Assembly (NCBI RefSeq): GCF_009931435.1
Contig: NZ_CP043414.1
Length of the DNA: 64,000 nucleotides
Reading direction: 5' to 3' (one strand)
Origin: Escherichia coli
Lineage (GTDB): Bacteria; Pseudomonadota; Gammaproteobacteria; Enterobacterales; Enterobacteriaceae
The translations under genes and the position numbers were made by a program. Of the stretch, positions 3,360 through 25,110 are shown piece after piece; within the stretch, counting starts at the first letter, position 1, and each line of letters opens with the position of its first letter. The notes beneath the pieces were generated by a model. That model made no database searches. It had not been told where the DNA came from and saw only the letters and a list, made by a program, of their open reading frames with translations.

Positions 3360-4697
3360 ATGAACACTTCACCGGTGCGAATGGATGATTTACCACTTAA
3401 CCGTTTTCACTGTCGAATTGCTGCGCTGACTTTCGGCGCACACCTGACCGACGGTTATGTTCTCGGCGTCATTGGTTACGCCATAATTCAGCTTACTCCA
3501 GCCATGCAACTGACGCCGTTTATGGCGGGAATGATCGGCGGCTCGGCGCTACTTGGCCTGTTTATCGGCAGCCTGGTTTTGGGCTGGATCTCCGACCATA
3601 TCGGGCGGCAAAAAATCTTCACCTTCAGCTTTATGCTGATTACACTCGCCTCGTTCCTGCAATTTTTTGCCACCACGCCAGAGCATCTTATTGGACTGCG
3701 CATTTTGATCGGCATTGGGCTGGGAGGCGATTACTCAGTAGGCCACACCTTGCTGGCTGAATTTTCTCCGCGCCGCCATCGCGGTATTTTGCTGGGCGCA
3801 TTCAGCGTGGTGTGGACCGTAGGCTATGTGCTGGCAAGTATTGCCGGACATCACTTTATTAGCGAAAGCCCCGAAGCCTGGCGATGGTTACTTGCATCGG
3901 CGGCATTTCCTGCCCTGTTGATTACGTTGTTACGTTGGGGAACGCCAGAATCGCCACGCTGGCTACTGCGCCAGGGGCGTTTTGCAGAAGCTCACGCTAT
4001 CGTGCATCGCTATTTTGGTCCCCATGTTTTACTGGGCGATGAAGTGGCAACGGCGACCCATAAACACATCAAAACCTTGTTCTCTTCGCGCTACTGGCGG
4101 CGCACGGCGTTTAACAGTGTCTTCTTTGTCTGCCTCGTAATCCCATGGTTTGTAATTTACACCTGGCTGCCAACTATCGCCCAGACTATTGGACTGGAAG
4201 ATGCGCTGACTGCCAGCCTGCTGCTTAACGCGTTATTAATTGTGGGTGCGCTGCTGGGATTATTTCTGACGCACCTGCTGGCACATCGCAAATTTTTACT
4301 TGGCAGTTTTTTGTTGCTGGCGGCAACGCTGGTAGTGATGGCCTGTTTGCCTTCTGGCTGTTCATTAACGCTGCTGCTTTTTGTTCTCTTCAGTACCACC
4401 ATTTCGGCAGTCAGTAATCTGGTGGGCATTTTGCCTGCGGAAAGTTTTCCTACTGACATTCGCTCGCTGGGCGTCGGTTTTGCCACCGCCATGAGTCGGT
4501 TGGGCGCGGCGGTAAGTACTGGCCTGCTGCCGTGGGTGCTGGCACAGTGGGGAATGCAAGTCACCTTATTGCTCCTGGCGGCAGTGTTGTTGGTTGGTTT
4601 TGTTGTGACCTGGCTATGGGCGCCAGAAACCAAAGCACTCCCGCTGGTGGCGGCGGGAAATGTAGGAGGTGTGAATGAACATTCTGTTAGCGTTTAA
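3360..4697 (+). CDS. ygcS: MFS transporter (445 aa)
   Basis: ORF-track frame 3288..4697; start taken at ATG 3360 (MNTSPVRMDDL...) behind AAGGGG. Multiple TM segments and GR(Q/K) MFS signatures. Confidence 0.8.
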   Translation: MNTSPVRMDDLPLNRFHCRIAALTFGAHLTDGYVLGVIGYAIIQLTPAMQLTPFMAGMIGGSALLGLFIGSLVLGWISDHIGRQKIFTFSFMLITLASFLQFFATTPEHLIGLRILIGIGLGGDYSVGHTLLAEFSPRRHRGILLGAFSVVWTVGYVLASIAGHHFISESPEAWRWLLASAAFPALLITLLRWGTPESPRWLLRQGRFAEAHAIVHRYFGPHVLLGDEVATATHKHIKTLFSSRYWRRTAFNSVFFVCLVIPWFVIYTWLPTIAQTIGLEDALTASLLLNALLIVGALLGLFLTHLLAHRKFLLGSFLLLAATLVVMACLPSGCSLTLLLFVLFSTTISAVSNLVGILPAESFPTDIRSLGVGFATAMSRLGAAVSTGLLPWVLAQWGMQVTLLLLAAVLLVGFVVTWLWAPETKALPLVAAGNVGGVNEHSVSV

Positions 4698-14309: not shown

Positions 14310-16967
14310 GTGACTTTCTTTGATTTCTGGGGAAAAACCCGACGTGGCGAGAAAGAGGGTGGCGACGATTATCACCTTCTTTGCTGGCATTCGCTGGATG
14401 TAGCCGCGATAGGCTATTTAATGGTCAAAAACAACTGTTTCGGGCTGGCTGACTATTTTCGTCAATTAGGTTTCGCTGACACGGATCAGGCAGCACAATT
14501 TTTCGCCTGGTTGTTGTGCTGGCACGATACTGGAAAATTTGCCCGCTCATTTCAGCAACTTTACCTGCACCCACAACTCAAGGTTCCGGAAGGCGCAAGA
14601 AAGAATTACGAAAAGATCTCTCATTCAACGCTGGGTTACTGGTTGTGGCATCATTATTTAATTGAATGTGAAGAGTTGCTTCCTTCATCTTCACTCTCTT
14701 TGCGCAAACTTAAACGAGTAATAGATATGTGGATGCCCGTGACGACCGGGCATCATGGTCGGCCTCCTGACCGTATCGATGAACTGGACAACTTTCTGCC
14801 TGAAGACAAAGCTGCCGCACGGGATTTTCTCCTTGAAATCAAGGTACTGTTTCCGCTCATCGAGATCCCTACATTCTGGGATGATGACGAGGGCGTTGAA
14901 CTTATAAAACATTTTTCCTGGTATATCTCTGCAACCGTCGTACTCGCAGACTGGACGGGATCGTCAACGCGGTTTTTTCCACGCGTTGCACAGGCAATGG
15001 ATATTAAAGATTACTGGCAGAAGGCTTTAGTTCAGGCTCAAAACGCATTAACCGTCTTTCCCCCAAAAGCAGAAAGCGCGCCTTTCACTGGAATTAATAC
15101 GCTGTTTCCTTTTATTGAGAACCCAACACCGTTACAGCAAAAGGTGTTGGATCTGGATATCAGCCAGCCAGGACCACAGTTGTTTATTCTGGAAGATGTG
15201 ACTGGCGCAGGTAAAACAGAAGCGGCGCTTATCCTGGCGCACAGGTTGATGTCTGCGGGGAAAGCACAGGGTTTGTTTTTTGGCCTGCCAACAATGGCAA
15301 CGGCCAATGCCATGTACGATAGGCTGGTAAAAACCTGGCTTGCTTTCTATTCGCCACAATCCCGCCCCAGCCTGGTGCTGGCACACAGCGCTCGTTCGCT
15401 AATGGATCGCTTTAACGCATCGCTGTGGTCTGGTGATTTTGTGGGGTCAGAAGAACCGGATGAACAAGCGTTCAGTCAGGGATGTGCGGCCTGGTTTGCT
15501 GACAGTAACAAGAAGGCGTTGCTGGCTGAAATTGGCGTCGGCACGCTGGATCAGGCGATGATGGCGGTGATGCCGTTCAAACATAATAATCTGCGGCTTC
15601 TGGGGCTGAGTAACAAAATCCTGCTAGCCGATGAGATCCACGCCTGTGACGCTTATATGTCGTGCATTCTTGAAGGGCTGATCGAGCGGCAGGCGCGTGG
15701 CGGAAACAGCGTTATTTTGCTTTCTGCTACGTTGTCTCAACAGCAGCGTGACAAACTCGTCGCCGCCTTTGCGCGTGGTGCAGAGGGCCAGCAAGAAGCT
15801 CCGTTGCTGGAAAAAGATGATTATCCCTGGCTGACGCATGTCACGAAATCCGATGTGCATTCGCACCGGGTAGCGACGCGCAAAGACGTTGAGCGCAGCG
15901 TGAGTGTGGGTTGGCTTCATAGCGAACAAGAGTGTATTGCGCGTATCGAATCGGCGGTAAGTCAGGGGAAATGCATCGCCTGGATTCGGAATTCTGTCGA
16001 TGACGCCATCCAGGTTCATCGTCAGCTGCTTGCCCGCGGCGTCATTCCTGCTTCCAGCCTTTCACTTTTTCATAGCCGCTTTGCTTTCAGCGATCGCCAG
16101 CGAATTGAAACGGAGACGCTGGCACGCTTTGGTAAAGAAGACTGTTCACAGCGTGCCGGAAAAGTCCTCATTTGTACTCAGGTCCTGGAGCAGAGCGTCG
16201 ACTGCGACCTGGACGAAATGATTTCCGACCTTGCCCCTGTTGATTTACTGATCCAGCGAGCAGGGCGATTACAGCGACATATCCGCGATATTAATGGTCA
16301 GTTAAAGCGTGACGGTAAAGACGAGCGTCACCCTCCTGTATTGCTGATTCTGGCCCCCGTCTGGAACGACTCTCCGGGTGAAGAATGGTTTGGCTGTGCC
16401 ATGCGTAACAGTGCATTTGTCTATCCCGATCATGGGCGAATCTGGTTGACGCAGCGTGTGCTGCGTGAACAAGGCGCGATTCAGATGCCACACTCAGCCC
16501 GGCTTCTGATTGAATCAGTCTACGGTGAGGACGTGGTAATGCCGGAAGGGTTTGCCCGCAGCGAGCAGGAGCAAGTGGGCAAATACTACTGCGATCGTTC
16601 AATGGCTAATAAGTTTGTGCTGAACTTCAGGCCCGGCTATGCCGCCAATATCAACGATTACCTCCCGGAAAAACTGTCGACACGTCTGGCTGAAGAGTCT
16701 GTTTCCCTGTGGCTGGCTAGCTGTATTGGCGGTGTGGTGAAGCCTTATGCCACCGGTGCACACGCATGGGAAATGAGCGTTGTCAGAGTGCGCCAAAGCT
16801 GGTGGAAAAAACATCGGGATAAGTTTTCTTTACTGGAAGGGGATGCGTTCAGGCAGTGGTGCGTTGAACAGCGGCAAGATCCGGAGATGGCAAACGTGAT
16901 TTTGGTCACCGATGACGAAAGTTGTGGATATTCGGCTACGGAGGGATTGATTGGCAAGGTTGGTTGA
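14310..16967 (+). CDS. cas3: Type I-E CRISPR-associated nuclease/helicase Cas3 (885 aa)
   Basis: ORF track 14310..16967 (GTG start). HD motifs (LLCWHSLDVAA, WHDTGKF), Walker A (GAGKTEAAL) and DExH (DEIH) present. N-terminus resembles Salmonella-type Cas3 rather than K-12 YgcB (from memory). Confidence 0.9.
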   Translation: MTFFDFWGKTRRGEKEGGDDYHLLCWHSLDVAAIGYLMVKNNCFGLADYFRQLGFADTDQAAQFFAWLLCWHDTGKFARSFQQLYLHPQLKVPEGARKNYEKISHSTLGYWLWHHYLIECEELLPSSSLSLRKLKRVIDMWMPVTTGHHGRPPDRIDELDNFLPEDKAAARDFLLEIKVLFPLIEIPTFWDDDEGVELIKHFSWYISATVVLADWTGSSTRFFPRVAQAMDIKDYWQKALVQAQNALTVFPPKAESAPFTGINTLFPFIENPTPLQQKVLDLDISQPGPQLFILEDVTGAGKTEAALILAHRLMSAGKAQGLFFGLPTMATANAMYDRLVKTWLAFYSPQSRPSLVLAHSARSLMDRFNASLWSGDFVGSEEPDEQAFSQGCAAWFADSNKKALLAEIGVGTLDQAMMAVMPFKHNNLRLLGLSNKILLADEIHACDAYMSCILEGLIERQARGGNSVILLSATLSQQQRDKLVAAFARGAEGQQEAPLLEKDDYPWLTHVTKSDVHSHRVATRKDVERSVSVGWLHSEQECIARIESAVSQGKCIAWIRNSVDDAIQVHRQLLARGVIPASSLSLFHSRFAFSDRQRIETETLARFGKEDCSQRAGKVLICTQVLEQSVDCDLDEMISDLAPVDLLIQRAGRLQRHIRDINGQLKRDGKDERHPPVLLILAPVWNDSPGEEWFGCAMRNSAFVYPDHGRIWLTQRVLREQGAIQMPHSARLLIESVYGEDVVMPEGFARSEQEQVGKYYCDRSMANKFVLNFRPGYAANINDYLPEKLSTRLAEESVSLWLASCIGGVVKPYATGAHAWEMSVVRVRQSWWKKHRDKFSLLEGDAFRQWCVEQRQDPEMANVILVTDDESCGYSATEGLIGKVG

Positions 16968-17063
16968 TATGCCTGCGACAGGATTCTCTGAATAGTTGAT
17001 ACACAAAAAAGGATGGAAGGATGGATAACCGACCTGGGATGGTCTTTTTACGAGAGGATGCGT

Positions 17064-18626
17064 ATGAACTCGTTTTCACTTCTGACAACCCCGTGGTTGC
17101 CCGTTCGTTATAAAGACGGAACGACAGGCAAACTGGCGCCAGTCGATCTGGCGGATGAAAATGTTGTCGATATCGCTGCGCCGCGGGCAGATCTCCAGGG
17201 TGCGGCATGGCAGTTTTTGCTGGGACTACTACAAACCAGCTTCGCGCCCAAAAATCACGGTCGTTGGGATGATATATGGGAAGACGGACTGGAAGCTGAA
17301 AAGCTAAGGGAAGCATTGCTGTCTTTAGAACATGCTTTCCAGTTTGGCCCAGATTCCCCTTCATTTATGCAGGATTTCGAGGCGCTTACGGGAGATAAAG
17401 TTCCTGTCGCTTCGTTACTGCCTGAAATTCCCGGCGCTCAAACAACGAAGTTCAATAAAGACCACTTTATTAAGCGTGGCGTGACTGAACACATATGCCC
17501 TCATTGTTCCGCGTTAGCGCTGTTTTCCCTACAGTTAAATGCGCCGTCAGGCGGCAAAGGCTATCGCACCGGTTTGCGCGGCGGTGGGCCAATGACGACG
17601 CTGATTGAATTACAGGAATATCAGGGCAATCAACAAACACCCTTGTGGCGCAAACTGTGGCTCAACGTGATGCCGCAGGATGAATCTGACTTACCGCTAC
17701 CCAAAAAATTTGGCGATCTGGTTTTCCCCTGGCTTGGCCCGACGCGTACCAGTGAACTGGCCGGTGCGGTGGTAACTGATGATCAGGTCAACAAACTCCA
17801 GGCGTACTGGGGAATGCCTCGGCGCATACGTGTTGATTTTAATACCACGACAGTCGGCAACTGCGATATTTGCGGTGAGCAGAGCGACGCGCTCCTGAGC
17901 CTGATGACGACCAAAAATTACGGTGCGAATTATGCCATGTGGCAGCATCCCTTAACGCCCTACCGTATACCACTTAAAGAGGGCGGCGAGCTTTACTCGG
18001 TTAAACCACAACCGGGCGGTTTAATCTGGCGCGACTGGCTAGGACTTATCGAAACGGGTAAGTCAGAAAACAATACGGAACTTCCCGCGCTGGTGGTGAA
18101 ACTCTTTAATGCCAGCAGTCTGAAACAGGCAAAAGTGGGCCTGTGGGGATTTGGCTATGATTTCGACAACATGAAAGCGCGCTGTTGGTACGAACACCAT
18201 TTCCCGCTACTGCTCAATAAAAAAGAAGGCCAGATACCAAAGCTGCGGCTGGCTGCGCAAACGGCTTCACGGATTCTAAGTCTGTTACGGAGTGCATTGA
18301 AAGAAGCATGGTTCTCCGATCCAAAAGGTGCACGGGGTGATTTCAGTTTTGTGGATATCGACTTCTGGAACAAAACTCAGCATCGCTTCCTGAGGTTAGT
18401 GCGTCAAATTGAAGAAGGTCAGGAGCCGGATGAATTACTCAGCAAATGGCAAAAGGAAATGTGGTTATTCGCGCGTCAGGATTTTGACGAGCGGGTATTC
18501 ACTAATCCTTATGAGCCCGTTGATTTGAAACGCGTCATGACCGCGCGCAAGAAATATTTTACAACATCGGCGGAGAAGCAAAGTGCTAAAGCCGCCAGGG
18601 AGAAAAAGCAGGAGGCTGCTGAATGA
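17064..18626 (+). CDS. casA: Type I-E Cascade large subunit Cse1/CasA
   Basis: ORF-track frame 17013..18626; start taken at ATG 17064 (MNSFSLLTTPWLPV...) with GAGG 6 nt upstream. ATG 17058 is an alternative. Confidence 0.8.
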   Translation: MNSFSLLTTPWLPVRYKDGTTGKLAPVDLADENVVDIAAPRADLQGAAWQFLLGLLQTSFAPKNHGRWDDIWEDGLEAEKLREALLSLEHAFQFGPDSPSFMQDFEALTGDKVPVASLLPEIPGAQTTKFNKDHFIKRGVTEHICPHCSALALFSLQLNAPSGGKGYRTGLRGGGPMTTLIELQEYQGNQQTPLWRKLWLNVMPQDESDLPLPKKFGDLVFPWLGPTRTSELAGAVVTDDQVNKLQAYWGMPRRIRVDFNTTTVGNCDICGEQSDALLSLMTTKNYGANYAMWQHPLTPYRIPLKEGGELYSVKPQPGGLIWRDWLGLIETGKSENNTELPALVVKLFNASSLKQAKVGLWGFGYDFDNMKARCWYEHHFPLLLNKKEGQIPKLRLAAQTASRILSLLRSALKEAWFSDPKGARGDFSFVDIDFWNKTQHRFLRLVRQIEEGQEPDELLSKWQKEMWLFARQDFDERVFTNPYEPVDLKRVMTARKKYFTTSAEKQSAKAAREKKQEAAE

Positions 18627-19159
18627 GTATTGTAAAAGAGGAGCACAAAGCCACGCTGCGCAAATGGCACGAGGAATTGCAGGAAAAACGCGGCAATCGT
18701 GCCAGTCTGCGGCGTAGTACGACGGTTAATGATGTTTGTTTGTCAGAAGGGTTTCGTTCTCTGCTGATGCAGACCCACACGTTGTGGAAAGTTGAAGCGC
18801 AAGAGTGGCGTTTTACCGCACTGGCACTGGTCGCTGCAGTTAGCGCCAATGTAAAAGCCATTGATGAACGGCAGCCTTTTGCCGCGCAGCTGGCGGCAGT
18901 AATGTCAGAAGGGCGGTTTTCGCGCCTGTCGGCAGTAAAAACGCCGGATGATTTACTGCGCCAGTTACGTCGCGCGGTCAAATTATTAAACGGTTCCGTC
19001 AATCTTATCTCTTTGGCAGACGATATTTTCCGCTGGTGCCAGGAGAGTGACGACCTGCTCAACCATCACCGCCGTCAGCAGCGGCCAACAGAATTTATCC
19101 GTATCCGCTGGGCGCTGGAATATTACCAGGCTGGCGACGCCGATAACGAACAAAATTAA
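18623..19159 (+). CDS. casB: Type I-E Cascade small subunit Cse2/CasB
   Basis: ORF track; start overlaps the casA stop (ATGA) behind AGGAGG. Confidence 0.85.
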   Translation: MSIVKEEHKATLRKWHEELQEKRGNRASLRRSTTVNDVCLSEGFRSLLMQTHTLWKVEAQEWRFTALALVAAVSANVKAIDERQPFAAQLAAVMSEGRFSRLSAVKTPDDLLRQLRRAVKLLNGSVNLISLADDIFRWCQESDDLLNHHRRQQRPTEFIRIRWALEYYQAGDADNEQN

Positions 19160-19173
19160 TAAAGGACTATCTC

Positions 19174-20229
19174 ATGACGACATTTATTCAGCTCCATTTG
19201 TTAACCGCTTACCCTGCAGCCAACCTTAACCGTGATGACACCGGTGCGCCGAAAACCGTGGTGCTGGGTGGAGCAACGCGTCTGCGCGTTTCCTCGCAAA
19301 GTCTGAAACGTGCGTGGCGCACTTCTGCACTTTTTGAACAGGCGCTGGCGGGCCATATTGGTATTCGTAGTGGGCGTATCGCGCGCGAGGCAGCAACTAT
19401 CATGATTGAGAAAGGAATCGAAGAAAAAAAAGCCATCGAATGGGCGGCAGATATTGCCGATTATCTTGGTAAAGCCAAAAAAGACAAAAAAACAAAAGAT
19501 CCGCTCACTAACGCTGAAACTGAACAGCTCGTCCATATCAGCCCTGCAGAATTTGACGCCGTAAAAGCGCTGGCCCATCAACTGGCAGAAGAAAAGCGCG
19601 CGCCAAAAGAGGACGATCTCGCTTTGTTACGTAAAGATCGTATGGCGGTAGATATCGCCATGTTTGGTCGTATGCTGGCGAATAAACCCGAGTTTAATGT
19701 TGAAGCCGCCTGTCAGGTCGCGCACGCGTTTGGTGTCAGTGAAACGATTGTCGAAGATGATTTTTTCACCGCCGTTGATGATTTGCGCCAGGCCTCTGAA
19801 GATGCTGGTGCAGGGCATCTTGGTGAAACTGGGTTTGGTTCTGCGCTGTTCTACACCTATATCTGCATTGATAAAGATCTGCTGGTCGAAAACCTCGGCG
19901 GTGACGAAGCATTAGCTAATCAGACCCTGCGCGCCTTTACGGAAGCAGCGTTTAAAGTTTCCCCAACCGGTAAACAAAACAGCTTTGCCAGCCGTGCCTA
20001 CGCCTCCTGGGCGCTGGCAGAAAAAGGCACCGAACAACCGCGTTCTCTGGCGGCGGCTTTCTATGAACCCATTAATGGCACACGTCAGTTAGATGTGGCA
20101 GTGCAGCGTATTACAACGCTTCGCGAAAACATGAATACGGTTTACGAACAGAAGACCGAATGCGCAAGTTTTGACGTGATGAACAAACAGGGAAGCATGA
20201 AGGACGTGCTGGACTTTATCTGCGCGTAA
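19174..20229 (+). CDS. casC: Type I-E Cascade backbone subunit Cas7e/CasC
   Basis: ORF track; 351 aa with N-terminal ...AANLNRDDTG... typical of Cas7e. Confidence 0.9.
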   Translation: MTTFIQLHLLTAYPAANLNRDDTGAPKTVVLGGATRLRVSSQSLKRAWRTSALFEQALAGHIGIRSGRIAREAATIMIEKGIEEKKAIEWAADIADYLGKAKKDKKTKDPLTNAETEQLVHISPAEFDAVKALAHQLAEEKRAPKEDDLALLRKDRMAVDIAMFGRMLANKPEFNVEAACQVAHAFGVSETIVEDDFFTAVDDLRQASEDAGAGHLGETGFGSALFYTYICIDKDLLVENLGGDEALANQTLRAFTEAAFKVSPTGKQNSFASRAYASWALAEKGTEQPRSLAAAFYEPINGTRQLDVAVQRITTLRENMNTVYEQKTECASFDVMNKQGSMKDVLDFICA

Positions 20230-20239
20230 GGGGCGGCTT

Positions 20240-20986
20240 ATGAGCCAATATCTGATTTTTCAGCTTCATGGGCCAATGGCATCCTGGGGCGTTGATGCAC
20301 CCGGTGAGGTGCGTCATACCCATGAACTGCCTTCGCGTTCAGCATTGCTGGGGCTGCTGGCTGCCGGGTTAGGGATACGGCGTGATGACACCGAATGCTT
20401 AAACGCGTTTAATCGCCACTATTCACTGGTGGTTTGCGCCAGCCGTAACCCGCGCTGGGCACGGGATTATCACACGGTCCAGATGCCAAAAGAGGTGCGT
20501 AAAGCGCGTTATTTCAGCCGTCGCGAAGAGTTGAGCGACCCTGATCTTCTAAGCGCGATTATCTCCCGGCGCGACTACTACACCGATGCCTGGTGGATGG
20601 TGGCCGTGGCAACAACAGCTGATGCGCCTTACAGCCTCGAACAGTTGCAGGAAGGTTTACGCCATCCGGTTTTTCCGCTTTATCTGGGGCGAAAAAGCCA
20701 TCCGCTGGCGTTACCCCTTGCGCCGTTACTGCTCGAAGGCAACGCGTCTGATGCCTTACGTACCGCATATCAACAGTATCAGGATCGTTTCCACGAACTA
20801 AAAGTCTCACTCCCGAAACTTCAGGATGAATGCTGGTGGGAAGGGGAACACGACGGCCTGGTCGCGAGCAAAATATTACGCCGCCGGGATGTTCCTTTAA
20901 ATCGTCAGCAGTGGCTGTTTGGGGAACGCACTGTCAATCAGGGGCCGTGGCTCAGCAAGGAGGAACCATGTACCTCTCAAGAATAA
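20240..20986 (+). CDS. casD: Type I-E Cascade subunit Cas5e/CasD
   Basis: ORF track; ...LHGPMASWG...SALLGLLAAGLGIRRDD... matches the Cas5e pattern. Confidence 0.85.
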   Translation: MSQYLIFQLHGPMASWGVDAPGEVRHTHELPSRSALLGLLAAGLGIRRDDTECLNAFNRHYSLVVCASRNPRWARDYHTVQMPKEVRKARYFSRREELSDPDLLSAIISRRDYYTDAWWMVAVATTADAPYSLEQLQEGLRHPVFPLYLGRKSHPLALPLAPLLLEGNASDALRTAYQQYQDRFHELKVSLPKLQDECWWEGEHDGLVASKILRRRDVPLNRQQWLFGERTVNQGPWLSKEEPCTSQE

Positions 20987-21614
20987 CCTTACATACCGGC
21001 CAGCTTTCCCCAGCGCAGTTGCTGCATCTGGTGGATCGCGGTGAATATGTGATGCATCAGTGGCTGTGGGATCTTTTCCCTGGCGGCAAAGAAAGGCAAT
21101 TTCTTTATCGTCGGGAAGAACTCCAGGGCGCGTTTCGCTTTTTTGTCCTGTCGCAGGAACGCCCGGCGGAAAGTGAAACGTTCACCATCGAATGCCGGTC
21201 ATTTGCGCCGGAGCTGCGTACCGGACAATCCCTTTTTTTCAACCTGCGAGCGAATCCAACAGTCTGTAAAGCGGGTAAGCGCCACGATCTGCTGATGGAG
21301 GCGAAACGGCAGGTGAGGGGGCAGGCGGAAGGAAGTGATGTCTGGTTGCATCAACAACAGGCGGCGCTGGGCTGGCTGGCTGCGCAGGGAGAGAGAAGTG
21401 GTTTTACACTGCTGGATACCTCGGTCGATGCCTACCGACAACAGCAACTGCGGCGGGAAAATGCCCGGCAACTGATCCAGTTCAGTAGCGTGGATTATAC
21501 GGGGATGCTGACGGTCACCGAGCCAGGGTTATTTCTGCAACGTCTCTGCCTGGGGTATGGCAAAAGCCGGGCGTTCGGCTGTGGTCTGATGTTAATCAAA
21601 CCCGGAGCAGAGGC

Positions 21615-21618
<4 letters not shown>
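20968..21618 (+). CDS. casE: CRISPR repeat endoribonuclease Cas6e/CasE (216 aa)
   Basis: ORF-track frame 20830..21618; start taken at ATG 20968 (MYLSRITL...) behind AAGGAGG, overlapping the casD 3-prime end. C-terminal GKSRAFGCGLM motif. Confidence 0.85.
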
Positions 21619-22828
<1,210 letters not shown>

Positions 22829-22924
22829 GTTACCCGTTCTTTAAAAATAAGGAAATGTTTGAATTTAGTTGGTAGATTGTTGATGTGGAATAAAATTGTT
22901 TAAAAACAGATACGTATGCTTAGT
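22829..22924 (+). promoter_or_regulatory. CRISPR leader (AT-rich, between cas2 and first repeat)
   Basis: About 96 bp of AT-rich sequence between the cas2 stop and repeat 1; position and composition fit a type I-E leader carrying the array promoter. Confidence 0.6.
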
Positions 22925-24051
22925 GTGTTCCCCGCGCCAGCGGGGATAAACCGTGGATTATGACGCCAGAGAGCTTCCTGTTTGCGTGTTCCCCGCGCCA
23001 GCGGGGATAAACCGCTGGCTAATAACATCCCACTGAATATTATTTCGTGTTCCCCGCGCCAGCGGGGATAAACCGAGGTGTGGCATGCGGGGAATTATGA
23101 TCCGGTAGTGTTCCCCGCGCCAGCGGGGATAAACCGTGACAACGGCCGGCCGCTCTTTTTGCGGTCATGTGTTCCCCGCGCCAGCGGGGATAAACCGATC
23201 ATCGGCATCATCTCGTGATACTCATCCGGCGTGTTCCCCGCGCCAGCGGGGATAAACCGCCCAGGCTTTACGTGAGCTGGCGGATGTGGCCGTGTTCCCC
23301 GCGCCAGCGGGGATAAACCATACGGTCAAGCGATATCAGGGGTACTGTGTCGTGTTCCCCGCGCCAGCGGGGATAAACCGGGCGCCGCATCTTTATCGTA
23401 AAGCATGTAAAGGTGTTCCCCGCGCCAGCGGGGATAAACCGACCGCTCACACCCAGACAAGCGCCACTAACGTGTGTTCCCCGCGCCAGCGGGGATAAAC
23501 CGAACGCCGCATCAGCTAAATACGCTAAAAAAATGTGTTCCCCGCGCCAGCGGGGATAAACCGCGGCTGATACTCAGGAGCAGGCCAGAGAGCGTGTGTT
23601 CCCCGCGCCAGCGGGGATAAACCGTACCACCTGTGTATTGAGTTACGTCGCCGGGGGTGTTCCCCGCGCCAGCGGGGATAAACCGGAGCTTCATCGGTGG
23701 TTCTGGGAGCAACGGGAGTGTTCCCCGCGCCAGCGGGGATAAACCGGCACAAGTGACTACATCAAGGATGGGGAATGGGTGTTCCCCGCGCCAGCGGGGA
23801 TAAACCGATTAACATTGCAATTGAATTGACGCGTATGAGGTGTTCCCCGCGCCAGCGGGGATAAACCGCAGGCAGCACGGCGGGTTTTGCCCGGATATTT
23901 GTGTTCCCCGCGCCAGCGGGGATAAACCGCAAAACCAATAGGTGCTTTCCACATTGCAGAAGTGTTCCCCGCGCCAGCGGGGATAAACCGCTCTCGGTTC
24001 TGGGGTACTGTTACCCATAACTGAGCTCCCCCGCGTCAGCGGGGGAACTCC
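22925..24051 (+). CRISPR. Type I-E CRISPR array: 19 repeats (18 canonical plus one degenerate terminal repeat), 18 spacers
   Basis: 29-nt repeat gtgttccccgcgccagcggggataaaccg at a 61-nt period from 22925; spacers 31-33 nt. Terminal repeat gagctcccccgcgtcagcgggggaactcc is degenerate; one internal repeat near 23292 ends in A instead of G. Confidence 0.95.
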
Positions 24052-24072: not shown

Positions 24073-25110
24073 TCATGACGCCTTCACCAGCTCCTTCACC
24101 AGCGGTAGCATTATCCGCATAACGTCACGGCAGCGACGTTCTATTCTTCCAGGAAGCGCCTTATCAATATGCTGTTGATTATCAAGCCTTACATCATGCC
24201 AGCTATTTCCCGCCGGGAAGGCCGGTGTTTTTGCGCGTTGCTGATAACCATCCTTATTTCCAAGATTCCAGTTGGTCGCCTCCACCGAAAGTACCGCAAT
24301 ACCGGCTTTGTCGAAAACTTCTGCATCATTACAACACCCGGTGCCTTTCGGATAGTTTTTATTCAAACCTGGATTTGTTGTCGCTGCAATCCCATGATTA
24401 CGCGCAATTGCCAGCGCTCGATCACGGGTTAATTTCCTGACAGCCTCTGGTGTATTTACACCACTATTAAAATACAATTTATCGCCAACAATTAAGTTAT
24501 CGAGATTAATCACCAGCAGCGTATTTTTCTTTTCGGTGTCACTCATCCGTTTGAGTAAATTCTCAGCGCCTAATTTTCCTTCCTCTTCGCCGCTGGTCGC
24601 CACAAATCGAATACCATACTCGGTAGGCGTATTTTTCAGGCGTTCAGCCAGTTCCAGCATGACACCTAAACCTGCGGCGTTATCATCCATTCCTTGTAAC
24701 GTTAGCCCGCCGAGATTGGCATCGGCGTCAGCATCGCTCAGCGGGGCGTAAGTATCCAGATGCGCCATAATGATGATCTGCTGCGGCGCTTTGCCTTCAT
24801 GAGCGGCAATCACCGTACTTCCCGTCACGTTATGCCAGCTCTTGCGATTATCGCGGGCGGTGTAAATATATCGGCTATTAAATGTCCGAATATCACTGCG
24901 ATAACCCATCTGTTGAAACTGTTGGCGAATATAATCGGCAGATAACATTTCTGCAGGAGTTCCGGTCATGCGTCCCGGAAAGAAAGTAGCAATATGTCGT
25001 GCCTGTGTATTAGCAAAATCACCAGGTTTAGGTGACGAGGCGTGTACGGGGAGAATAAAGCATACGCCGAGCGCCAGGGCAGCGGTACGGTGGCGCAATG
25101 CGGAAAACAT
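24073..25110 (-). CDS. iap: Alkaline phosphatase isozyme conversion aminopeptidase
   Basis: ORF track; 345 aa with N-terminal signal peptide (MFSALRHRTAALALGVCFILPVHA) and M28-peptidase-like body. Confidence 0.9.
   Translation of the reverse strand: MFSALRHRTAALALGVCFILPVHASSPKPGDFANTQARHIATFFPGRMTGTPAEMLSADYIRQQFQQMGYRSDIRTFNSRYIYTARDNRKSWHNVTGSTVIAAHEGKAPQQIIIMAHLDTYAPLSDADADANLGGLTLQGMDDNAAGLGVMLELAERLKNTPTEYGIRFVATSGEEEGKLGAENLLKRMSDTEKKNTLLVINLDNLIVGDKLYFNSGVNTPEAVRKLTRDRALAIARNHGIAATTNPGLNKNYPKGTGCCNDAEVFDKAGIAVLSVEATNWNLGNKDGYQQRAKTPAFPAGNSWHDVRLDNQQHIDKALPGRIERRCRDVMRIMLPLVKELVKAS

Follow-up and report, generated by a model that had tools for sequence, protein, structure and literature searches.

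Genes and features of the locus

The window, that is, the whole 64-kb stretch of DNA analyzed here, contains a CRISPR array of 18 full repeats and 18 spacers (Table 1). Beside the array, cas3, cse1, cse2, cas7e, cas5e, cas6e, cas1e and cas2e are found in one operon, and together make up the type I-E gene set. All eight cas ORFs are uninterrupted, and the type I-E models of NCBIfam pass for 8/8 of the Cas proteins, which bears out the subtype given to the array in a preliminary description of this DNA. Downstream of the array, iap lies on the opposite strand and is followed by cysDNC. In comparison with E. coli 24A16CRGN010, in which the cas genes are annotated, DNA identity is 99.5% over the cas genes and 96.7% over iap-cysDNC. 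Because its position between cas2 and iap-cysDNC matches that in annotated E. coli genomes, the array is the iap-side (CRISPR2.1) array of an E. coli type I-E system. A promoter-like site (TTGGTA-16-TAAAAT, positions 22869–22896) points into the array; it is a single consensus match, of a frequency no higher than in shuffled sequence.

Table 1. Coordinates of the cas operon, the leader, the array and its individual units, with the best protospacer found for each spacer (matching positions/length; PAM, the three bases directly 5' of the protospacer).
Feature	Coordinates	Strand	Remarks
cas3 (885 aa)	14310–16967	+	Passes the NCBIfam models for the Cas3 core and the HD domain
Cascade genes cse1/casA, cse2/casB, cas7e, cas5e, cas6e	17013–21618	+	5/5 type I-E NCBIfam models pass
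cas1e	21615–22538	+	TIGR03638, E = 1.5e-114; 84% identical to K-12 Cas1
cas2e	22535–22828	+	TIGR01873, E = 3.2e-39; 86% identical to K-12 Cas2
Leader, 96 nt	22829–22924	+	AT-rich; separates cas2 from repeat 1; same sequence as the L001 leader
CRISPR array	22925–24051	+	18 full repeats, 18 spacers, degenerate terminal repeat
Spacer 1 (newest)	22954–22985	+	No target found
Spacer 2	23015–23046	+	No target found
Spacer 3	23076–23107	+	Tail-fibre gene, lambdoid prophage of E. coli STEC384; 30/32; PAM ATG
Spacer 4	23137–23168	+	No target found
Spacer 5, 33 nt	23198–23230	+	Tail-sheath (DUF3383) gene, STEC384 prophage; 31/33; PAM ATG
Spacer 6	23260–23291	+	TerB/TciA-like gene, SSU5-like phage-plasmids (p09EL50); 32/32; PAM ATG
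Repeat 7	23292–23320	+	Terminal A in place of G
Spacer 7, 31 nt	23321–23351	+	Minor tail protein M gene, SSU5-like phage-plasmids (Cyrano, p09EL50); 31/31; 5' flank TCA
Spacer 8	23381–23412	+	Coupling-protein (type IV secretion DNA transfer) gene, 31-kb conjugative plasmid pGF47-C; 30/32; PAM ATG
Spacer 9	23442–23473	+	ardC gene, 31-kb plasmid pGF47-C; 30/32; PAM ATG
Spacer 10	23503–23534	+	Gene without known function, prophage-like IMG/VR viral contig; 32/32; PAM ATG
Spacer 11	23564–23595	+	No target found; common to the E. coli N96 array
Spacer 12	23625–23656	+	Replication protein P (helicase loader) gene, STEC384 prophage; 32/32; PAM ATG; also in N96
Spacer 13	23686–23717	+	No target found; also in N96
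Spacer 14	23747–23778	+	DUF551 gene, lambdoid phages and prophages; 32/32; PAM ATG (phage 611R6); also in N96
Spacer 15	23808–23839	+	TraE/TraK-family transfer gene, IncHI-type 221-kb plasmid; 32/32; PAM ATG
Spacer 16	23869–23900	+	Tail gene, P2-like prophage of E. coli 40EC; 32/32; PAM ATG
Spacer 17	23930–23961	+	DUF551 gene, lambdoid phages, e.g. 611R6; 32/32; PAM AAG
Spacer 18 (oldest, anchor)	23991–24022	+	SSU5-like phage-plasmid p09EL50; 28/32, mismatch at position 1; PAM AAG
Degenerate terminal (19th) repeat	24023–24051	+	Hairpin kept, -22.2 kcal/mol
iap	24073–25110	-	NF007568, E = 2e-211; annotated iap in L001; defines the chromosomal site of the array

The operon was compared with that of E. 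coli K-12. The Cascade proteins are just 8–32% identical to their K-12 counterparts, and the leader is unlike that of K-12. Both equivalog models for K-12 CasA and Cas3 (PRK09693 and PRK09694) fall below their cutoffs, with PRK09694 scoring 420.9 on cas3 against a cutoff of 569. The duplicon GGTTTATCCCCGCTGGCGCGGGGAACAC, with A at its variable position, is present as the reverse complement of the repeat. This 'CRISPR-A' duplicon has been tied to 'leader-A' and to O157:H7-type cas genes (Diez-Villasenor et al. 2013, PMC3737337). Because the repeat begins with GTGTT, the Cascade proteins are so distant from K-12, the K-12 models stay below their cutoffs and the leader differs, the system is, as judged from its sequence, the non-K12 E. 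coli variant, which combines O157-type cas genes with a 'CRISPR-A' repeat and a leader of its own. The cas genes are distinct from the K-12 set, and the O157-type label is based on the comparison with K-12 together with the published definition.

Organization of the array

The repeat GTGTTCCCCGCGCCAGCGGGGATAAACCG occurs in 18 full copies from position 22925 to position 23990, as determined by an exact and a fuzzy re-parse of the region, and two repeat finders agree on this read-out. Seventeen of the 18 copies are identical; the seventh is the sole variant and ends in A. No further copy of the repeat was found on either strand of the 64-kb window, and Rfam at its gathering thresholds returned no family for the repeats. 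The repeat folds into a 7-bp GC hairpin with a centroid energy of -15.1 kcal/mol (z = -3.2). The degenerate terminal repeat GAGCTCCCCCGCGTCAGCGGGGGAACTCC is conserved across E. coli strains and differs from the L001 copy by 1 nt in a G-run. Given the hairpin that it retains, the last spacer is probably still processable.

With the 28-nt duplicon convention set aside, 16/18 units consist of a 29-nt repeat and a 32-nt spacer and are exactly 61 nt long. The two exceptions are unit 5 (62 nt), in which the spacer is 33 nt, and unit 7 (60 nt), in which the repeat with the terminal A is followed by a spacer of just 31 nt. The preliminary description had counted 18 spacers, a 33-nt spacer 5, a seventh repeat ending in A and a degenerate end repeat, and had seen the regular 29/32 pattern broken near 23198–23230 and 23292–23320. 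The exact re-parse reproduces all of these features. Both oddities were thus rightly noted, while the short spacer 7 and the 60-nt unit that it produces had been missed.

Spacer targets

Queries consisting of the array and of the concatenated spacers were compared with phages, plasmids and 5,426 complete E. coli genomes, and additionally with IMG/VR. The plasmid query with the whole array was swamped by plasmid-borne CRISPR arrays, and the concatenated spacers were therefore used. Matched elements were fetched and every spacer was re-aligned locally together with its flanks. Gene assignments were taken from the annotation of the records themselves and from PHROGs.

Protospacers were found for 13/18 spacers, and all of them lie in mobile DNA of E. 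coli: a phage-plasmid, prophages, plasmids and a viral contig. The targets, given as unknown at the outset, are thereby resolved for the greater part of the array, which constitutes a readable history of the encounters of the strain with mobile DNA. For two spacers more than one kind of element had to be weighed. Spacer 14 matches the DUF551 gene of the phage-plasmid at 30/32 positions with the flank ACG, and spacer 17 matches it at 31/32 with AAG; the lambdoid phages are the better match for both.

Spacers 1, 2, 4, 11 and 13 had no target in the E. coli genomes (sensitive mode), phages, plasmids or IMG/VR (with every sixth base free), and the 22-nt core of spacer 1 had no match in metagenomes. 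A candidate target of spacer 1 in p09EL50 was rejected, as the similarity is partial (22/32) and the site has no AWG flank. Within the 64-kb window no spacer matches a second site, and just chance similarities of 11–12 nt were seen, so no self-targeting was found there.

Motif flanking the protospacers

All 12 protospacers in direct orientation carry AWG directly at their 5' side, with ATG in 10 cases and AAG in two, and the G falls at the position of the last repeat base. The tally covers the spacers for which a target was found and is to that extent incomplete. The chance of AWG is 1/32 per site, and that of 12/12 is (1/32)^12. The published acquisition motif of the non-K12 variant is CWT (AWG), and natural leader-A arrays show 34 CAT against 9 CTT (PMC3737337). 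The predominance of ATG over AAG in the present array, at 10:2, agrees with these counts.

In K-12, by contrast, the acquisition motif is AAG only (PMC3737337), whereas here it is AWG with ATG in 10/12 protospacers. The check for AAG that had been proposed for this array therefore applied the K-12 rule, and what it brought to light is the motif published for the non-K12 cas variant. The predominance of ATG is a reminder that the K-12 'AAG' rule fails for the commoner non-K12 variant of E. coli.

Polarity of the array and grouping of spacers by element

Spacer 18 is common to E. coli 24A16CRGN010 and N96. The conservation of this spacer and of the terminal repeat across strains supports the usual polarity, with the oldest spacers far from the leader. 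This is in line with the preliminary description, which took the leader-proximal spacers to be the newest: the leader adjoins cas2, spacer 18 and the degenerate repeat at the far end are shared across strains, and the spacers at the near end differ. Among the 5,426 complete E. coli genomes, N96 is the sole one to share the internal spacers 11–14, in addition to the anchor spacer 18. Recombination between arrays was considered as the source of this pattern, in which N96 shares spacers 11–14 and 18 but not 15–17. It is not needed, since differential deletion from a longer ancestor fits equally well.

Several elements are matched by more than one spacer. The SSU5-like phage-plasmid (109 kb) is matched by spacers 6, 7, 14, 17 and 18, the STEC384 lambdoid prophage by spacers 3, 5 and 12, and the 31-kb conjugative plasmid by spacers 8 and 9. 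The IncHI plasmid (spacer 15), the P2-like prophage (spacer 16) and the prophage-like viral contig (spacer 10) are each matched by a single spacer.

This clustering could mean that several spacers per element arose by primed adaptation from older, imperfect spacers such as spacer 18, and not by independent naive acquisitions. The five spacers on one 109-kb phage-plasmid would fit such an origin, as the four in direct orientation match the same strand and the protospacers of spacers 6 and 18 are separated by 2.1 kb. The ancestral spacer 18 is itself an imperfect match to the phage-plasmid (28/32, with the mismatch at position 1), and three spacers fall on one prophage and two on one 31-kb plasmid. 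In the same direction, the protospacers of spacers 14 and 17 lie in one DUF551 gene on one strand, 13 nt apart and spanning 77 bp, with that of spacer 17 upstream. However, four spacers would all fall on one strand by chance with a probability of 1/8, and the strands are mixed on both the prophage (spacer 3 -, spacer 5 +, spacer 12 -) and the plasmid (spacer 8 -, spacer 9 +). The DUF551 gene, moreover, is present in many unrelated phages, so that spacers 14 and 17 need not derive from the phage-plasmid, and repeated exposure to common elements would look alike. Primed adaptation is thus a possible source of the clusters, but on balance a rather unlikely one.

Spacer 5 is one base too long

The protospacer of spacer 5 has ATG immediately at its 5' side, and the 33rd base of the spacer matches the protospacer, which reads …CCGGC followed by gat. 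Because the ATG directly upstream places the PAM-proximal end in the normal register, the extra base lies at the PAM-distal end. E. coli spacers are 33–34 nt long under the 28-nt duplicon convention, with those of 33 nt making up about 95% and the longer class about 5% (PMC3737337). Spacer 5 is therefore a fragment one base longer at its PAM-distal end, and a member of this known minority class.

Spacer 7 and the variant repeat 7

In unit 7 the match to the phage-plasmids does not stop at the boundary of the spacer. It runs through the terminal A of repeat 7 and the C preceding it, and is contiguous over 33/33 positions; the A at 23320 is thus the base of the protospacer and not the G of the repeat. 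In the normal register the 5' flank of this protospacer is TCA, which is the sole non-AWG flank of the set. At its far end, in Cyrano as in p09EL50, the protospacer has GTGTC and then tt, so that the opposite strand reads AAG and then ACACAG…. With TCA upstream and, at the 3' end, a C and TT that spell AAG in the complementary strand, spacer 7 is best read as a fragment that was selected beside AAG and integrated in reverse orientation.

The preliminary description had suggested that the deviant units record atypical acquisitions, and this part of it holds. It had also taken the terminal A of repeat 7 for the PAM-proximal base of the protospacer. This does not hold, as the A corresponds to the PAM-distal end of a reversed spacer, whose other end has the AAG in the opposite strand.

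Reverse insertion has been shown experimentally (PMC4027179; PMC3737337). The 'flipped' spacers of the adaptation experiments (Shmakov et al. 2014, PMC4027179; PMC3737337) resemble spacer 7 in having the motif at the leader-distal side on the other strand, a PAM-derived C at the 3' end, and an upstream repeat that ends in a base of the protospacer. They differ from it in two respects: spacer 7 is natural and fixed, and its unit is 60 nt and not 61 nt. The standard length of a reverse insert (a 28-nt duplicon plus 33 nt, i.e., a 61-nt unit) is therefore not reached, and unit 7 can be divided as 28+32 or as 27+33. The experimental analyses took 33-bp inserts only, and shorter ones are not described there. 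A regular reverse insertion would be expected to read …ATAAACC+CATACGG…, and the actual sequence has one C fewer. Reverse insertion thus needs a further event or an error to account for the missing base, which may reflect a 32-nt fragment, a second cut that was one base off, a later deletion of one C in the CCC run, or a read error in the homopolymer. No second copy of the junction between repeat 7 and spacer 7 was found in complete E. coli genomes or, with either a 60- or a 61-nt form allowed, in GTDB representative genomes and metagenomes.

A comparable unit is found in the array of E. coli N96. The sole A-ending repeat of that array precedes a spacer with a 33/33 protospacer in the chromosomal gene rlmM, and the unit has the normal length of 61 nt. 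Upstream of the rlmM protospacer stands GCA, and its far end is a C with AT behind it, so that the complementary strand reads ATG. The A-ending repeat of N96 is thus an independent parallel that supports reverse insertion.

Other origins of unit 7 were considered. Spacer 7 could have been taken in direct orientation from a site without the motif (TCA), so that the AAG at the far end would be a coincidence. Acquisitions from non-AAG sites occur at a few percent in experiments (PMC4027179), and the 60-nt unit shows that the event was imprecise in any case. However, the prior chance that AWG should fall in exact register in the complementary strand is about 3%, N96 would need the same coincidence again, and the 3' base of spacer 7 is C, as reverse insertion needs. 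We give this reading little credence. Slippage of the PAM does not account for the flank either, as there is no AWG within a few bases upstream and the nearest ATG is 10 nt away.

Least probable of all is that unit 7 holds no acquisition record, being a canonical acquisition that later underwent a G-to-A change and a 1-nt deletion, or that both differences are sequencing errors: the unit lies beside a short C-run in which the loss of 1 nt is plausible, the junction has no second copy in the collections searched and the terminal repeat likewise has a 1-nt G-run difference from another strain, but the A is the exact base of the protospacer in the contiguous 33/33 match, the direct flank is TCA against AWG in all 12 other protospacers, the opposite strand has AAG at exactly the far end (the chance of AWG being 1/32), and N96 shows the same pattern in a unit of normal length. 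Sequencing error had been named early on as a possible source of the variant bases. Because the protospacers match both variant bases, namely the terminal A of repeat 7 and base 33 of spacer 5, random error is unlikely for either.

With reverse insertion as the preferred origin, the crRNA of spacer 7 (TCA flank, 31-nt guide) probably does not direct interference, and at most could prime acquisition. A broader proposition is that fixation of reverse spacers in natural E. coli arrays is commoner than has been assumed, and that the integrase treats them differently, with a second cut one base off that yields 60-nt units. This seems improbable. If true, it would mean that reversed spacers are tolerated as harmless or priming-only memories, of which the rlmM spacer of N96, which would be lethal if correctly oriented, would be an example. 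The fixed reverse spacers of the present array and of N96 could provide a starting point for asking how often non-functional memories persist.

Interpretation and comparison with known type I-E systems

Taken together, the locus is very probably an ordinary non-K12 E. coli type I-E array that records mobile DNA, with two irregular units that represent inaccuracies of insertion, namely the long spacer 5 and the reversed spacer 7. By analogy with characterized systems, transcription of the array would start from the leader and run along the + strand, and Cas6e would cut at each repeat hairpin to give 61-nt crRNAs. These crRNAs would be loaded into Cascade, and targets flanked by AWG (ATG or AAG) would be passed to Cas3. 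New spacers would enter beside the leader, and the G of the motif would supply the final base of the repeat upstream of each. In the reversed spacer 7, this PAM-derived base would accordingly appear as C on the side away from the leader, and the repeat upstream would end in the A of the protospacer. Type I-E systems of E. coli are often silenced by H-NS.

The analysis yields a corrected description of the array (a 31-nt spacer, ATG in place of AAG, a reversed spacer) and a target list for 13/18 spacers, and adds nothing beyond described biology. Two imprecisions known from type I-E spacer integration are cleanly illustrated by this natural array.

The closest known counterpart is CRISPR2.1 of the non-K12 (O157:H7-type, 'cas-EO / leader-A / CRISPR-A') variant (PMC3737337). 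The two are alike in site (cas2-array-iap) and gene set, in the repeat (a 28-nt duplicon with A at the variable position) and the 61-nt period, in the AWG (CWT) motif with ATG (CAT) predominant, and in a minority (about 5%) of spacers that are one base longer. CRISPR I of K-12 with its cas-EK genes is alike in locus, architecture and mechanism, and its Cas1 and Cas2 are 84% and 86% identical to those found here. It differs in the leader and in the Cascade subunits (8–32% identity), and its repeat begins with GAGTT where GTGTT is found here, the two being one base apart. Every tested feature of the array falls within the non-K12 type I-E family save the length of the reverse insert. With respect to the published non-K12 arrays, the spacer content of the present one is strain-specific.

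Repeats ending in A in other arrays

The CRISPR array of E. coli N96 (NZ_CM169999.1) has a single repeat ending in A, located directly before a spacer that matches rlmM. The match to this housekeeping gene is complete (33/33) and recurs in essentially every one of 5,425 E. coli genomes. Its flanks mark the spacer as a reverse-oriented insertion, picked next to an ATG. The spacer is thus self-derived, and its backward placement would be the sole reason for its harmlessness.

The array of E. coli 24A16CRGN010 likewise contains one A-ending repeat, here followed by a 32-nt spacer whose last base is A, not C, and it also includes one 33-nt spacer. A search for protospacers of these two spacers found none, and the final A of this repeat may, therefore, have a different origin.

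Coordinates of the array features and their counterparts
Feature	Window	Other locus
A-ending repeat with the rlmM-matching spacer, N96		L009 (N96 array locus) 2350-2410; L014
A-ending repeat with its 32-nt spacer, 24A16CRGN010		L001 (24A16CRGN010 locus) 4487-4547
Spacer 1 partial match		L004 (phage-plasmid p09EL50) 45412-45443
Region with spacers 11-14 and 18	23564-24022	L009 2472-3052
Spacer 14	23747-23778	L003 1502-1578 (protospacers of spacers 14 and 17 in a DUF551 gene)
Spacer 17	23930-23961	same stretch of L003
Degenerate terminal repeat	24023-24051	L001 5098-5125
cas operon	18500-22924 (compared stretch)	
iap-cysDNC segment	24026-28400	

Spacer targets and spacer sharing

Spacers 14 and 17 have their protospacers on one strand of a DUF551 gene, with only 13 nt between them; the gene is common to lambdoid prophages and SSU5-like phage-plasmids. 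This arrangement could be the trace of primed adaptation, or it could be an acquisition hotspot. Spacer 1 partially matches (22/32) an intergenic region of p09EL50, with 20/22 identities over its 3' 22 nt, no match in its 5' part, and CAC as the flank. This match is probably due to chance, or to a relative that has diverged strongly from the true target.

Spacers 11–14 and 18 are common to the window and N96, which carries five other spacers in place of spacers 15–17. Either recombination between arrays or differential deletion from a longer ancestor would account for this pattern.

Terminal repeat and flanks of the array

In its G-run, the degenerate terminal repeat reads GGGGG in the window versus GGGG in 24A16CRGN010. 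This one-G difference could be genuine, or one of the assemblies could carry a homopolymer error. Compared with 24A16CRGN010, the cas operon shows 99.5% identity, whereas the adjoining iap-cysDNC segment reaches only 96.7%, which suggests that the two sides of the array have not shared the same history.
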